64,000 bases of DNA from a virus: positions 93,132 to 157,131 of IMG/VR virus record IMGVR_UViG_3300049215_000686. One strand, written 5' to 3'. The notes beneath the pieces were generated by a model. That model searched no databases and was not told the DNA's origin. It saw only the letters and a list, made by a program, of their open reading frames with translations. The position numbers and the translations under genes were made by a program. The number at the start of each line of letters is the position of its first letter. The first letter of the stretch is position 1. Positions 47,025 through 64,000 of the stretch are shown piece by piece.

Positions 47025-49969
47025 TACCTCCTAGAAATTTCAGCCCAGACGGAACCGTCCCAGATGAAATAGATTGTTTGTCTCAACTTAAGAACAACCG
47101 GACCGTTGAGACCCAATCCGTTGCCATCATTTAACGTTAATGTATTTGTATCATCGGTGCCAAAGAGGATCAGTTCTTGGCCAACGATTGTCCCAGCGCC
47201 GACTTGTGGAGTCGCCGCACTTGTGACCGCTCCACCATTTCCTGCAACAAAAACGATTTGTCTTTGGGCCGCAAGAACAGGAACAGTGGTAAGTGCAGAA
47301 ATTAAGTTGGGAGACCCGATGCTTCCTGAAACCACATAAGCCGGATCGCCTCCTCCTCCTCCTCCGCCTGTACCAGTGCCCGGCTTTTCTAACCGAATGG
47401 TTATCCTGGCATTTTGAGGAGCCGCAGAGAAAAGTTGAATTTGAGTCGTTGAAACTTTATTGAAATCAGGAAGACCCGTTCCACTTTGGTCTTGATCTAG
47501 TTTTTGGCCATTCATCCAGACCGTGATATCTGGAACAGAATTAAGTACATCGAATGAAAAACTGGATACAGTGAAGTTGGTTTGACCTAGAGGGTTTAAG
47601 ACAATGAATTGCTCTTCAAAAGCATGAGCAGTCGCAAGGGCATGGACTTCGGCATCAAGTTTCGAGATCGCAGTGGCGTAACTATCCCCAGAACTAATGA
47701 AAAATGTCGAAGTATAAGCCTCGTAAGAATCTTCTGTGAGAATCCCCAAACGTGCCCGAACATTGATATCAAGGTCTTGATCAGCCGGAAACGTTCCAAC
47801 ATTGATTCTTCTGGCATCCCAAAGGTAGACAAAATTCGTCGCAAATCGAATTGCAAAGATAAATACATTTTCAGATAGGGGAACCGAAGAAATCGGGGCA
47901 ACGGTTAAAGAAGCAAGACTAGCGAGAGAGAATGATGCATTTCGATTAACGGTAAAATAGGCTGCCTGGTTGGCTGCGAGGCTTAATGTCCCGCCCAAAT
48001 TAATGACGCCATTATTTCCAGATCCCGGCATGGCAATCCGAAGAAGAGCGCCGCCACCGGTAAATGTGATGTCTTGATTTGAACCATTTGTCGTATTGAC
48101 GATGTTGGTGATATTTTCACGATCGATCTGGATCGTTTTATCTTGAGCCTTATCGGCCATCATCGAAGTGATTCTGGACAATCTCTTCGTGAGATCTTCA
48201 CCCGCAACTGAATTATAGTTCGTTTGAGTGGCGAGAGCGCCGGTCGCGGTAGTGATATATTCCGGGAAGGTCGATCCCTCTCCCGGCATTCCGGTATATT
48301 CAACGATATTTTGAATCGTTGAATCACCGACATTAATCAGTTCACCAGGAAGGATACTCGAATTTCTGAGTTCAATGGTATTGGCACCATCAAACAGCGC
48401 CAGCCAAATCGTCCGCTCAACGCCATGGCTCACGCCAGAAATGACACCTGGGACACCCGCCGCAGAAGAGTAATGATAATAACCAATACCACCTGAATCG
48501 GTTTGGTAAACATAATCACCCACCTGAACGAGTCCACTGGGATCAGGCGTCACGCCCGAAAATAGCCCGGTTCCTGCGGTATAAGACGTATAAGAAAAGA
48601 TTTGTCCATGAACCAGAACTTTTCCGCCGGTAGTGATGTAATTGCCGCCCGTGGGGACACTGATACTGGTCGGAGAAACTGCGCTTACTTGTTTTGGGAC
48701 AATGGGAGTCGCCGCATCTTCTCCAAATCCATAAGAAATAGCCGTGTCCGTAGTCGGGAAAAGAATATATAAAGCGGGATGAAGAGCAAGATTAATACCT
48801 GAAAATGCATTCAGATTTAAGTTATTGGCAAACCCAAGTCGGTGAATAACCGTTCCACCGGATAATGCCAAAATTCCAGGAGTTCCCGAACTAAACTTAA
48901 CGCTTTCTGAGGCGTTTGTTCCAAGAGCGTTCGCTGATAACGTAACGACATTGCCGACCAAATTAAGAACAGTCGTTGCCGGGCTATCGGGGATGTCAAT
49001 CCCGGTGACAATATCGCCGTTCACGATCCCAGTGGTCGAGGCAAGCCCCGTCAATTGATTAGAACCTAAGGTGACTGAGCCAGTTGTTGTCAAATAGGGA
49101 GGATTGTGCTGCCAAGTCCCGCCACTAAAAACAATCAAAGAAGAGTTTTGGTAAGCCGAAGCAATTCCGCCACCGGCTGCCCCTGACATATACCAAAACG
49201 GCGTGCCCTTAATCTCTTTGAGAGAGGACATGACCGCATCCATCCACTGCTTGAAATATTTGATATTTTTGTCGCCGCCCTGAAATGGGGCGTTCGTGGG
49301 AGTGGCAGAAGTCGCGGTCGAAGGCGTTTCAAAGCGAGCATGGGAAGAATCCGGATCGCTCGGCCAAGAAAAGTTATTTGCCGGATTCGGAGAATCTCCG
49401 CCTGTTCCAAGTCTGAAAAGGAGATTTCGACAATCCTGTACTGAAGTGACAATGCCGGAAGGATTGGTAATTACTTTATAAAGCGGCATTTTACCGGAAG
49501 TAAAGCCGGTAATATTTGCCGTAACGTTGATTTGTAAATTAATGACCGTATCAACGGTATCCGTGAACTCTCCGCCTACTCCTGAATTTGCAGCCGGATC
49601 CCAAAATGCCCTGACATCAGGAGTTCCGGAAGAACTTCCGAGATCAGCCTCAACGAAGTTCGTGGCATTGGGAGAAAGACTTACTGAAATATTGGGCTCG
49701 GTTCCAGAGAAGACATAAAAACCAGCCGACTGAGTGGCCGCTTGTGAGTGAAAAAGGACCACATCATCAATCGTTAATGAAAAACCCGGAACGGTGAAGA
49801 TGGTGTTGTAATTTGAGATTTCAAAGCCAGTTAAAATCAGGCTTTGTGGAGAATAAAAACCAGAAAGAAAAAAGCGCCAATCGTTTAAACTCGCGGCTTC
49901 AAGAAGTCTTGCATCCGGTGTATCAAAGCGTTCATCAGGTTGTATGGATAGGCGCTGAAGGACTGCCAT
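47024..49969 (-). CDS. baseplate-attached tail fibre/wedge protein
   Basis: 981 aa, beta-rich, poly-Gly hinge, C-terminus WDGSVWAEISRR. Confidence 0.7.
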   Translation of the reverse strand: MAVLQRLSIQPDERFDTPDARLLEAASLNDWRFFLSGFYSPQSLILTGFEISNYNTIFTVPGFSLTIDDVVLFHSQAATQSAGFYVFSGTEPNISVSLSPNATNFVEADLGSSSGTPDVRAFWDPAANSGVGGEFTDTVDTVINLQINVTANITGFTSGKMPLYKVITNPSGIVTSVQDCRNLLFRLGTGGDSPNPANNFSWPSDPDSSHARFETPSTATSATPTNAPFQGGDKNIKYFKQWMDAVMSSLKEIKGTPFWYMSGAAGGGIASAYQNSSLIVFSGGTWQHNPPYLTTTGSVTLGSNQLTGLASTTGIVNGDIVTGIDIPDSPATTVLNLVGNVVTLSANALGTNASESVKFSSGTPGILALSGGTVIHRLGFANNLNLNAFSGINLALHPALYILFPTTDTAISYGFGEDAATPIVPKQVSAVSPTSISVPTGGNYITTGGKVLVHGQIFSYTSYTAGTGLFSGVTPDPSGLVQVGDYVYQTDSGGIGYYHYSSAAGVPGVISGVSHGVERTIWLALFDGANTIELRNSSILPGELINVGDSTIQNIVEYTGMPGEGSTFPEYITTATGALATQTNYNSVAGEDLTKRLSRITSMMADKAQDKTIQIDRENITNIVNTTNGSNQDITFTGGGALLRIAMPGSGNNGVINLGGTLSLAANQAAYFTVNRNASFSLASLASLTVAPISSVPLSENVFIFAIRFATNFVYLWDARRINVGTFPADQDLDINVRARLGILTEDSYEAYTSTFFISSGDSYATAISKLDAEVHALATAHAFEEQFIVLNPLGQTNFTVSSFSFDVLNSVPDITVWMNGQKLDQDQSGTGLPDFNKVSTTQIQLFSAAPQNARITIRLEKPGTGTGGGGGGGDPAYVVSGSIGSPNLISALTTVPVLAAQRQIVFVAGNGGAVTSAATPQVGAGTIVGQELILFGTDDTNTLTLNDGNGLGLNGPVVLKLRQTIYFIWDGSVWAEISRR

Positions 49970-61280: not shown

Positions 61281-61435
61281 AAATGAATAAGCCCAAAAAA
61301 CTCTATCGCTACAATGGGTATCACGAACTCCAAATACATCTAATCGGCCCGGATTGTAATCCACAACTTATCGAACGTCAGCCTGATGGAAATTTGTAGA
61401 GATGCTGGCGAGCCGGGGTTCATCCTCCATTAAAC

Positions 61436-61527
61436 TGGCGGAAGACCGAGGTGTCGAGTCCCCGTGCGCTCTCGCGCGACGTATATCCGCTTTCAAGGCG
61501 GAGTGCCAGGCCGCTGGCAGGTCTTCC
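61436..61527 (-). tRNA. tRNA-Ser(TGA), atypical fold
   Basis: GGAAGACC/GGTCTTCC-G-CCA; TCCGC-CTTGAAA-GCGGA; long variable arm; unusual D and T arms. Confidence 0.7.
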
Positions 61528-61609
61528 ATTTAAATTCTTTCGCTGGTCCATCTCCTGCATTGGATTGATTCAGTAGTACCAGGCAAAAATCAAACAATTA
61601 GGAGATTTT

Positions 61610-61840
61610 ATGGACATCCGAACTGATCCGAATTTCATCAAATATGTAGTCACAACGCTTCTTACCAATGCGAATTTAACAAAACTACAAGGCGGCAAAT
61701 ACGTGGTCGCTGGCTTAAACGCTATCCCCGGCTTCAATCAGGGAGAACAATTCACAAGCATTGATCAGGTTTCCGACCGATTGGTAAGCGCATTGCAGAG
61801 ACAATACGAGAGTTCTGCTGGGAGTTCTCGGCAGGCCTAA
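61610..61840 (+). CDS. hypothetical protein inserted antisense within the tRNA cluster
   Basis: AGGAG RBS, 76 aa. Confidence 0.7.
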   Translation: MDIRTDPNFIKYVVTTLLTNANLTKLQGGKYVVAGLNAIPGFNQGEQFTSIDQVSDRLVSALQRQYESSAGSSRQA

Positions 61841-61851
61841 TCGGATGTCCG

Positions 61852-61891
61852 GCAGGGAGACTCTTTTCACTGCGCTGGGTCTCCCTGCTTT
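61852..61891 (+). terminator. hairpin/terminator
   Basis: GCAGGGAGACTC...GGGTCTCCCTGC-TTT. Confidence 0.55.
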
Positions 61892-61914
61892 AAAAACTAA
61901 ATCCTCCATCAGTT

Positions 61915-61985
61915 TGGTCCCCACGTGTGGACTCGAACCACACCTAAAACGTTCGTAGCGTTCCGTCCGATCCTTTGGCGTGGGG
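61915..61985 (-). tRNA. tRNA-Arg(ACG), shortened D-arm
   Basis: GAACG-CTACGAA-CGTTT, TGTGG-TTCGAGT-CCACA, CCA encoded. Confidence 0.75.
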
Positions 61986-61997
61986 ATCGTTTCAAAT

Positions 61998-62072
61998 TGG
62001 TCGGCGGTAAAGGAATTGAACCTTTTTCGTCTTCCTTGTAAGGGAAGCATTCTCCCGGTGAATTAACCGCCG
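61998..62072 (-). tRNA. tRNA-Val(TAC)
   Basis: CTTCC-CTTACAA-GGAAG; full cloverleaf; CCA. Confidence 0.9.
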
Positions 62073-62073
62073 A

Positions 62074-62126
62074 TGCCGGAGCGCTTTGGACTCGAACCAC
62101 CACAGGTCCCCAACTGGACACGCCCC
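62074..62126 (-). pseudogene. tRNA remnant lacking the anticodon arm
   Basis: GGGGCGT/GCGCTCC acceptor, GTCC-AGTTGG-GGAC, TGG-TTCGAGT-CCA, ends GCA. Confidence 0.65.
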
Positions 62127-62135
62127 ATATAAATT

Positions 62136-62209
62136 TGGTGCGAGCGGAAGGAATTGAACCTTCATTAGACGATTATCGGTCGTCCGTTCTGCCGTTGAAC
62201 TACGCTCGC
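62136..62209 (-). tRNA. tRNA-Ile(GAT), C33
   Basis: GACGA-CCGATAA-TCGTC; CCA. Confidence 0.9.
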
Positions 62210-62211
62210 TC

Positions 62212-62288
62212 TGGTCCAAGGGGCACGACTCGAACGTGCGACTACCGCCTTATGAGAGCGGTGTTCTACCCTGCTGAACTACCCTTGG
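62212..62288 (-). tRNA. tRNA-CAT (elongator Met or Ile2)
   Basis: CCGCT-CTCATAA-GGCGG; paired 1:72; CCA. Confidence 0.9.
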
Positions 62289-62543
62289 TCATGGAACCTC
62301 AAATGCGTGCCGATCACATAACCACGCCATTTCGTGTGTGCCCGGCTCGCTGATATGAGAGTCCTTTTGCATTTGATTGGGGAAAAGTTTTCTGTGTGTA
62401 ACACAAAACCATTGCCCATCTATTTTGTAACCACAAGCCTCCCGAACTTTGTACTCGATACCCCATTTAATGGTGGTGCCGAGTTTCGTTTTCACAACAT
62501 TCGATTTGGTCATAATGACCTCCTTTTGAGGCCATCTTATCAA
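62289..62543 (-). CDS. small Cys/His protein within the tRNA operon
   Basis: GGAGG RBS before internal MTKSN; C..H and C..H pairs. Confidence 0.6.
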   Translation of the reverse strand: MIRWPQKEVIMTKSNVVKTKLGTTIKWGIEYKVREACGYKIDGQWFCVTHRKLFPNQMQKDSHISEPGTHEMAWLCDRHAFEVP

Positions 62544-62648
62544 ATCGACTTTTTCAATTTCTCAAAAACCCCCTTTTTTCAGCCTATTTTTTCTATTTTC
62601 CTTAATTATTTCAGACCCCAACTTTTCGCTTGGTGCGATTTTTAGACT

Positions 62649-62723
62649 TGGTCCGGACGATAGGATTTGAACCTATTTTGTAGCGCTTAGAAGACGCTTG
62701 CCTATCCAATCGGCCACGCCCGG
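62649..62723 (-). tRNA. tRNA-Arg(TCT)
   Basis: AGCGT-CTTCTAA-GCGCT; CCA. Confidence 0.92.
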
Positions 62724-62725
62724 AT

Positions 62726-62762
62726 AAAAAACAAAACCCCCGAAACTTTCGCTCCGGGGGTT
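62726..62762 (-). terminator. intrinsic terminator (attenuator) directly upstream of the first tRNA
   Basis: AACCCCCGGAGC-GAAA-GTTTCGGGGGTT followed by TTGTTTTTT. Confidence 0.9.
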
Positions 62763-62793
62763 CGTTGTGCTTTTGAGATTGTTAGTTGTTAAA

Positions 62794-62871
62794 CTAAGCG
62801 CACACCCCCGTTGACTCGATAATCATCGAGCGACTAATCATTACGACTGAGGATCTACGCATGGTATTCAT
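62794..62871 (-). CDS. attenuator leader peptide MNTMRRSSVVMISRSMIIESTGVCA
   Basis: leaderless ORF 6 nt after TATAAT; its 3' end CGGGGGTGTGC is complementary to the terminator 5' arm and adjacent sequence. Confidence 0.8.
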   Translation of the reverse strand: MNTMRRSSVVMISRSMIIESTGVCA

Positions 62872-62884
62872 GTCTCTATTATAC
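62872..62884 (-). promoter_or_regulatory. -10 element of the tRNA-operon promoter
   Basis: GTATAAT-AGAGAC-ATG; near-identical to GTATAAT-AAAGAC-ATG at 63847-63832. Confidence 0.7.
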
Positions 62885-63558: not shown

Positions 63559-63834
63559 TTAAATATTTTGGGCCTCATCATCGAACTCGTCAACAATGAA
63601 AAGCGCATAAACACTATTTTGGGTTTCAAAGAGGATTGTTTGATTGAGGCGCGCTAATGACTGAACTCGCGTCGTTCTGACAGATCTGACCCCGAATTCA
63701 AGTCCTTCTCCTGTCAACGTAAAACCCTCATTCAAGGCCGGAAGATCCCGGCAAACGCCTTCAATCACATTGGTTCGCAGGTTATTGTGCGACGAGTTAA
63801 TTCTATGGAGGTGAACTTTGTAATGTCTGGCCAT
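63559..63834 (-). CDS. hypothetical protein (leaderless start MARHYK)
   Basis: TATAAT-6 nt-ATG; C-terminal FETQNSVY. Confidence 0.6.
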   Translation of the reverse strand: MARHYKVHLHRINSSHNNLRTNVIEGVCRDLPALNEGFTLTGEGLEFGVRSVRTTRVQSLARLNQTILFETQNSVYALFIVDEFDDEAQNI

Positions 63835-63852
63835 GTCTTTATTATACGTTTT

Positions 63853-63878
63853 TGGTATTTCCGACGGGGATCGAACCC
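63853..63878 (-). pseudogene. 3' fragment of a tRNA
   Basis: GGGTTCGATCCCCGTCGGAAATACCA with no matching 5' half nearby. Confidence 0.5.
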
Positions 63879-64000
63879 TATCTTGGTTCGAATAGCTTGA
63901 CATATGGCAGGTTTGATTGAGACTGAACGAAATCCGCTACTTACCGCCGATTTTGTCCTATTTTAGGACAAGCATCTGCGTCATGCAATGCCTACTTGTC

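Follow-up and report, generated by a model that had tools for sequence, protein, structure and literature searches.

The DNA analysed here is a window of 64,000 nucleotides that corresponds to bases 93,132-157,131 of the 157,131-bp IMG/VR virus record IMGVR_UViG_3300049215_000686, and positions below refer to this window unless stated otherwise. The record codes for a baseplate-J tail protein, GroEL, a nicotinamide phosphoribosyltransferase, a transfer-messenger RNA (tmRNA) and at least 17 tRNAs. On the minus strand of the window, ahead of tRNA-Arg(TCT), lies the unit considered here, U1 (62885-62726), in which a promoter element, a short open reading frame (ORF) and an intrinsic terminator precede a tRNA array that they are proposed to control by leader-peptide attenuation. 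The unit is composed of the following features:

62885-62878, minus strand: extended -10 element TG-n-TATAAT, TGTATAAT, matching the consensus, with TATAAT at 62883-62878
62871-62794, minus strand: leader ORF of 25 codons plus TAG (62796-62794), with its ATG at 62871 and no Shine-Dalgarno sequence
62862-62818, minus strand: sensor codons 4-18, read from the sequence, 12 different codons for Met, Arg, Ser, Val and Ile only
62860-62849, minus strand: region 1, a sensor-codon segment (putative anti-antiterminator), paired with region 2 when the full-length sequence is folded to minimum energy
62831-62814, minus strand: internal 7-bp hairpin, GCTCGAT / ATCGAGT, predicted by folding
62810-62800, minus strand: region 2, CGGGGGTGTGC, putative 5' half of the antiterminator and a near-copy of the terminator 3' arm
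62770-62755, minus strand: region 3, GCACA (62770-62766) together with the terminator 5' arm CCCCCG (62760-62755), predicted to pair with region 2 or region 4
62763-62726, minus strand: intrinsic terminator, a 13-bp stem with a GAAA loop (62763-62734) and a U-tract to 62726, stem-loop about -23 kcal/mol

Most of this layout had been proposed in a first-pass annotation, which read the unit as a leader-peptide attenuator matched to its own tRNAs, and the individual elements were found in place. TATAAT, the 6-nt spacing and the 25-codon ORF stand where that annotation put them, and the TG ahead of the hexamer makes the -10 element an extended one; the 6-nt distance between TATAAT and the leader ATG implies a leaderless transcript. 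The listing of codons 4-18 was exact; these use 12 different codons for the five amino acids. The CTCGAT/ATCGAG hairpin inside the ORF was recovered at 62831-62814. This hairpin may serve as an RNA-polymerase pause hairpin, and the two paralogous units described below, U2 and U3, hold a hairpin at the equivalent position. The GAAA-capped terminator was likewise verified, with a stem of 13 bp where 12 bp had been given, and its U-tract ends 2 nt before the start of tRNA-Arg(TCT) at 62723. Additionally, the 3' end of the ORF, CGGGGGUGUGC, is complementary to the terminator 5' arm, and region 2 is complementary to GCACA too; the exact complement is 7 nt long and finishes 7 nt before the stop codon. 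Region 2, GCACA and CCCCCG, all noted before, are indeed paired with one another in the minimum-energy fold when the terminator 3' arm is omitted.

Downstream of the terminator, the minus strand carries tRNA genes, tRNA-like sequences and one further ORF:

62723-62649, minus strand: tRNA-Arg(TCT), the first of the putatively gated genes, called by ARAGORN and Rfam (54.2 bits)
62513-62289, minus strand: 74-codon ORF with an AAGGAGG Shine-Dalgarno sequence, between tRNA-Arg and tRNA-Met
62288-62212, minus strand: tRNA-Met(CAT), called by ARAGORN and Rfam
62209-62136, minus strand: tRNA-Ile(GAT), called by ARAGORN and Rfam
62125-62073, minus strand: tRNA-like fragment between tRNA-Ile and tRNA-Val that lacks an anticodon arm and has an acceptor stem, a D arm and a short T arm
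62072-61998, minus strand: tRNA-Val(TAC), called by ARAGORN and Rfam
61988-61917, minus strand: Arg(ACG)-like sequence with acceptor, anticodon and T arms, without a D arm and without a cloverleaf fold
61527-61436, minus strand: Ser(UGA)-like class-II cloverleaf predicted by folding, with a CU-UGA-AA anticodon loop, G73, CCA and an aberrant 8-nt T-loop

The first-pass annotation had counted six tRNAs in this array. The Arg(TCT), Met(CAT), Ile(GAT) and Val(TAC) genes stand, being the only four called by both ARAGORN and Rfam, whereas the Arg(ACG) and Ser(TGA) candidates are unconfirmed, since neither ARAGORN nor the Rfam model RF00005 called them and a permissive Rfam scan of 61400-62140 added no tRNA. 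The fragment at 62125-62073 looks like a decayed tRNA gene and the Arg(ACG)-like sequence is probably another; owing to these decayed or truncated pieces, the array looks partly eroded. The Ser(UGA)-like sequence has a minimum free energy of -41.9 kcal/mol (z -2.95) and sits past a plus-strand ORF, and its membership of the operon is uncertain. The 74-residue product of the ORF at 62513-62289 had no relatives in the databases searched (IMG/VR and a search of 5.8 billion proteins). Also in this region, a 10-bp hairpin, GCAGGGAGAC / GTCTCCCTGC, lies at 61850-61886, after a plus-strand 76-codon ORF (61610-61840) of which it is probably the terminator; it points towards the end of the minus-strand tRNA array, making this a point of convergence of two transcription units.

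When compared with the four confirmed tRNAs behind it, the U1 sensor matches in 8/15 positions at the codon level and 11/15 at the amino-acid level, and both scores fall within the top ~0.01% of genome windows. The low amino-acid complexity of the sensor was also considered as its distinction and was rejected, because 392 of the 169,596 stop-free windows of the genome equal it with five or fewer amino acids per 15 codons.

The phage has another tRNA cluster, L007, located outside the window, and it holds two paralogous units:

L007:3573-3408: U2, with TATAAT, 9 nt, ATG, 26 codons and a terminator
L007:1465-1310: U3, with TATTAT, 6 nt, ATG, 25 codons and a terminator that tRNA-Asp follows after 7 nt

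Codons 2-16 of U2 specify Asn six times, Lys twice (AAG, AAA), Tyr, Phe and Ala twice each and Thr once, and the unit is followed by an HNH-endonuclease ORF and then by tRNA-Asn(GTT), Lys(CTT), Lys(TTT), Tyr, Ala and Phe, the tRNA-Asn being supported by Rfam at 45.7 bits and missed at ARAGORN default settings. Codons 6-18 of U3 specify Thr six times, with all four Thr codons in use, Gly three times, Asp twice, and Asn and Ile; directly behind it are tRNA genes for Asp, Gly(TCC), Gly(GCC), Thr(CGT), Thr(TGT) and Thr(GGT). The three units share a common geometry, with leaders of 25-26 codons, a span of 144-151 nt that begins with the ATG and closes with the U-tract, and region 2 placed at ORF nucleotides 59-68. 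The MAFFT alignment of U1-U3 was poor.

The U2 array closes with a tRNA-Trp(CCA)-like sequence of low confidence (L007:1661-1731, genome 69160-69230, minus strand), called only by ARAGORN at a relaxed threshold and not by Rfam, and the U2 leader contains a single Trp codon, at position 17. The leaders further carry one to four codons that belong to the sets of other arrays, namely Asn and Thr in U1 (62863-62868), Thr in U2 (L007:3516-3518) and Lys, Phe and Ile in U3 (L007:1442-1450), which might reflect either cross-talk between units or chance.

The specificity of these leaders was evaluated in a genome-wide scan of the 169,596 stop-free windows. It was verified that the U2 leader, with a cognate score of 13/15, ranks first for its own tRNA set, and that the U3 leader (11/13) comes within the first four loci for its own, with U3 and U1 both within the top ~20 windows for theirs. 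Under a stricter coverage scan, in which every tRNA of the set had to be sampled and at least 11/17 codons had to be cognate, only three loci per set passed, the leaders among them.

The same design was found in two unrelated IMG/VR phages. A high-GC IMG/VR contig (G001), reached through a DUF7694 homologue, contains a unit at L001:5540-5735 that consists of TTGACT, a TACGAT -10 box, 6 nt, ATG, 25 codons, a 7-nt region-2 complement and a terminator, and that precedes tRNA genes for Ile, Gly, Thr, Ser, Asn and Gln, all of which (6/6 identities) are represented in its leader. The tRNAs were the only matches obtained when this unit was compared by BLAST with cultured phages. The spacing of U1, with a -10 box followed by 6 nt and ATG, thus recurs in both U3 and the unit of G001. 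The other phage, complete and AT-rich with 327 kb, was reached through a phrog_2426 homologue and presents four units, whose leaders match arrays for Thr/Cys/Ser/Phe/Gly/Asn/Arg, for Pro/His/Gln, for Asp/Glu/Val/Leu/Ala/Trp/Met and for Lys/Tyr, respectively. Eight units were therefore available for comparison, three in this genome, one in G001 and four in the 327-kb phage. The first-pass annotation had proposed that ORF-plus-terminator units be sought before other tRNA arrays; two were found here and five elsewhere, and their codons covary with the anticodons behind them.

The true assignment of leaders to arrays was the single best of the 6 permutations possible in this genome, of the 24 in the 327-kb phage and of the 40,320 obtained with all eight units. 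In addition, each confirmed tRNA in the four arrays of this genome and G001 (22/22) is represented in its leader by one cognate codon or more, and the codon sets of different leaders within a genome hardly overlap and follow the respective arrays to the isoacceptor level. A partial match to the design was observed in the Caulobacter phage phiCbK, in which annotated terminators, those at 49745 and 51465 of JX100813 among them, stand directly before tRNA blocks. In this phage, a 32-codon ORF rich in Gln, Phe, Val and Ile precedes a Phe-Val-Ile-Ile-Val-Gln-Gln tRNA block, and gp083, located before a Pro/Lys/Leu/Ser block, matches in part, being rich in Thr and Ala, for neither of which phiCbK has a tRNA. 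Ahead of the Glu/Asp tRNAs of phiCbK, the unit is not clear-cut.

Further evidence concerns the proposed structural switch. Each leader of this genome includes an exact 7-nt complement of its own terminator 5' arm, located 7-13 nt ahead of the stop codon, and this segment covaries with the terminator arm through compensating base changes, as CGGGGGU/ACCCCCG, GCGGGGU/ACCCCGC and CCUGGGG/CCCCAGG in the three units. Since the 7-nt complement changes along with the terminator 5' arm, region 2 is, judged by its sequence, a copy of the terminator 3' arm, which is a classical mark of attenuators. In shuffled sequences the complement was matched with p = 0.027, 0.011 and 0.009 per unit, values that give no credit for its position.

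With regard to folding, region 1 pairs with region 2 and the terminator forms in the full-length minimum-energy structures, whereas the antiterminator formed by regions 2 and 3 (2:3) is the minimum-energy fold when region 4, the terminator 3' arm, is omitted, as it would be during transcription. On transcripts without region 4, the 2:3 and 1:2 folds were predicted at -30.4 versus -26.2 kcal/mol in U1 and at -27.8 versus -27.2 and -31.9 versus -24.2 kcal/mol in the other two units, leaving the 1:2 fold 0.6-7.7 kcal/mol less stable. When the full-length sequence was folded thermodynamically with the ribosome represented by masking, the terminator was nearly always retained, and a co-transcriptional model was used instead. 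In that model, 2:3 pairing is kept with the ribosomal A site at codons 1-16 and is lost once this site reaches codon 17-18, and likewise further on and at the stop codon. In 7/8 units this modelled ribosome-occlusion boundary is also where the run of cognate codons ends.

Taking sequence and modelling together, we place at about three in four the probability that U1 is a ribosome-mediated transcription attenuator gating the tRNA array behind it. This reading, already advanced in the first-pass annotation, is supported by the paralogues, the units of unrelated phages, the codon-anticodon covariation and the compensating 2:3 base changes. Transcription would start at or beside the leader ATG, as the extended -10 box and the 6-nt spacing suggest, and a ribosome would translate the 25-codon leader while RNA polymerase proceeds. 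With fast decoding, the ribosome would reach the last codons or the TAG and cover region 2, so that regions 3 and 4 pair and transcription stops 2 nt before tRNA-Arg. When a charged cognate tRNA is scarce, the ribosome would instead stall at about codons 2-16, leaving region 2 free to pair with region 3, so that no terminator forms and the tRNAs are transcribed. The new tRNAs would then relieve the stall, which amounts to negative feedback with OR logic over several tRNA species and to a supply of tRNA on demand. The trigger could be a mismatch between the host supply and codon demand, the loss of host tRNAs during infection or tRNA-cleaving defences; sensing of defence-induced tRNA depletion is a speculation, as one of the uses that a general feedback loop driven by demand could have.

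Several observations weigh against this interpretation. As the Arg(ACG) and Ser(TGA) genes are unconfirmed, 7/15 sensor codons of U1 (four Ser codons, CGT, CGC and GTC) are without a confirmed cognate phage tRNA, and U1 is the weakest of the three units of the genome. The 74-codon ORF has its own Shine-Dalgarno sequence and possibly its own promoter, so that the Met, Ile and Val tRNAs could escape the attenuator. No orthologue of U1 was found in IMG/VR when it was searched with the phosphatase encoded upstream, the 74-residue ORF product and a 22-nt tRNA-Arg pattern, and the evidence of covariation consequently comes from paralogous and analogous units. No leader unit accompanies the lone tRNA-Met of this phage or the two lone tRNAs of G005, the closest relative found. 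Since the terminator always wins in full-length folds, switching rests on the kinetic model, and since 2:3 is at least as stable as 1:2, an untranslated transcript might read through, unlike that of trp. Finally, without a Shine-Dalgarno sequence, translation of the leader needs leaderless initiation, while the other genes of the host use Shine-Dalgarno sequences.

One alternative is a translation-coupled attenuator that reports general translation capacity, amino-acid starvation or the timing of infection, the codon bias being a side effect of, for instance, shared phage codon preferences. The proposed mechanism is in fact blind to whether a tRNA is uncharged or absent, the leaders hold a few codons of other arrays, and the seven U1 codons just mentioned fit a general sensor. 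However, general sensing has no need of nearly disjoint codon sets that follow each array to the isoacceptor level, nor of both Lys codons where both Lys tRNAs are encoded or all four Thr codons ahead of three Thr tRNAs, and we regard this alternative as unlikely. It is quite unlikely, in turn, that the structure is an ordinary terminator of the upstream phosphatase gene accompanied by a fortuitous, untranslated ORF, with the tRNAs expressed from other promoters or by leaky read-through. The phosphatase gene does end 30 nt before TATAAT with no other terminator between, the ORF lacks a Shine-Dalgarno sequence and 15-codon windows of low complexity are not rare. Nevertheless, this explanation does not account for three units of the same geometry plus five elsewhere, each enriched for the codons of its own array, nor for the covarying copy of the terminator 3' arm inside each ORF, and the 2 nt between the U-tract and tRNA-Arg offer no promoter-like sequence.

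A direct contact between RNA and tRNA, as in T-boxes, in which leader triplets would pair with the anticodons of uncharged tRNAs and stabilise the antiterminator independently of translation, would explain a terminator/antiterminator pair before translation-related genes and triplets that match anticodons. Such a contact is highly improbable given that Rfam returned no T-box match even at E values up to 1, that neither a specifier loop nor conserved T-box sequence is present, that the triplets lie in one frame between ATG and stop in 8/8 units, and that the cognate run stops at the modelled ribosome-occlusion boundary. We find it equally hard to credit that the short ORFs encode functional micro-proteins unrelated to the terminator: one of them, phiCbK gp083, is annotated as a hypothetical protein, but the peptides share no common sequence and have nothing conserved beyond length, position and the in-frame GGG-GUG segment making up region 2, and their composition follows the downstream tRNAs.

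The phosphatase gene just mentioned (63449-62913), of the dual-specificity/tyrosine type, lies directly upstream of U1. In the search of 5.8 billion proteins its closest relatives were distant, with at most 48% identity, and mostly from Bdellovibrionota, which is only a hint as to the identity of the host. Further upstream, a 91-codon ORF of unassigned function (63559-63846, minus strand) is headed by a second TATAAT, 6 nt (AAAGAC) and ATG, an arrangement that suggests that leaderless starts are used elsewhere in the phage. Upstream of this ORF, at ~63850-63905, lies a tRNA-like 3' half with T arm, acceptor and ACCA that was called by no tRNA finder. The contig end and start share a 91-bp exact direct repeat (window 63910-64000, genome 157041-157131, identical to genome 230-320), and the first 229 nt of the contig look GC-richer than the phage; either a duplicated attachment site flanked by host DNA or an artefact of assembly may account for this. 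Outside the window, the tmRNA (Rfam 87.1 bits; L007:3881-4301, genome 71380-71800, minus strand) is located ~300 nt upstream of U2 and shares its strand with the tRNA arrays. At genome 48207-48240 (minus strand; L008), the 5' end of the lone tRNA-Met(CAT) is preceded at a distance of 7 nt by a AAAAAAGGTATATT box, whose AAAAAGG plus -10 motif resembles the U2 promoter region.

Beyond U1, it is fairly probable that many unrelated phage lineages carry modular, codon-programmed attenuators that act as multi-input OR gates on the decoding speed of the very codons served by their arrays and release the tRNAs of these arrays on demand. The expression of tRNA genes is usually attributed to the strength of their promoters and to signals of growth rate, and phage tRNAs are regarded as constitutive helpers. 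A full-text literature search returned no description of leader-peptide attenuation of tRNA genes, in phages or elsewhere. If the proposed mechanism is true, these would be the first known attenuation-regulated tRNA genes, and the circuit would compensate automatically for any host tRNA loss, including cleavage by anticodon nucleases, a matter that touches how phages cope with tRNA-targeting defences. A translation-speed sensor for each tRNA block would represent a new regulatory logic, in which the input is the decoding activity of the product itself. It would also account for the terminators found directly before phage tRNA blocks, would reclassify some "hypothetical proteins" as leader peptides and would provide a natural multi-codon sensor that synthetic biology could re-program. 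The idea is directly testable, given that phiCbK, which is in culture and infects a model bacterium, has similar units.

Phage tRNA arrays are also viewed as replacing host tRNAs cleaved by defence systems. In the phiCbK genome paper, they were presented as codon-usage helpers, and no RNA elements besides tRNAs were reported (PMC3556154). The present proposal concerns the same genes and the same presumed benefit, while those descriptions of helper or replacement arrays do not include a codon-matched leader and terminator switch.

Among RNA-based controls, T-box riboswitches resemble the phage units in that the status of a specific tRNA sets the choice between terminator and antiterminator, and differ from them in binding the tRNA directly, independently of translation, through a conserved fold and sequence. 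The E. coli pheST attenuator, with the leader peptide pheM, places a component of the translation apparatus under the control of charged-tRNA supply. It is like the phage units in this leader-peptide control by charged tRNA, and unlike them in that it governs a synthetase, reads a single amino acid and is chromosomal.

The nearest parallel is found in the attenuators of amino-acid operons, which include trpL, hisL, leuL, thrL, pheL and the multivalent ilvGMEDA leader. U1-U3 are not members of the Rfam families His_leader or Thr_leader or of any curated RNA family: the sole leader match of U1 in Rfam was the rnk leader, at 25.8 bits against a cut-off of 55, with no match to His_leader or Thr_leader, and U3 remained below the cut-offs for His_leader (23.7 bits versus 49) and Thr_leader (16.8 bits versus 55). 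As in attenuators of the trp, his and ilv type, the phage units combine a short ORF rich in regulatory codons, an intrinsic terminator and mutually exclusive pairings, 2:3 and 3:4 together with a putative 1:2; region 2 mimics region 4, the position of the ribosome would set the fold, and the leaders would read several amino acids at once, like those of ilv and thr. Unlike those attenuators, they would regulate tRNAs themselves rather than enzymes, they are phage-borne and apparently leaderless, and several autonomous units occur in one genome, each for a different tRNA set. In addition, 1:2 is not clearly more stable than 2:3 in the phage units, and their leaders sample the synonymous codons read by each isoacceptor.

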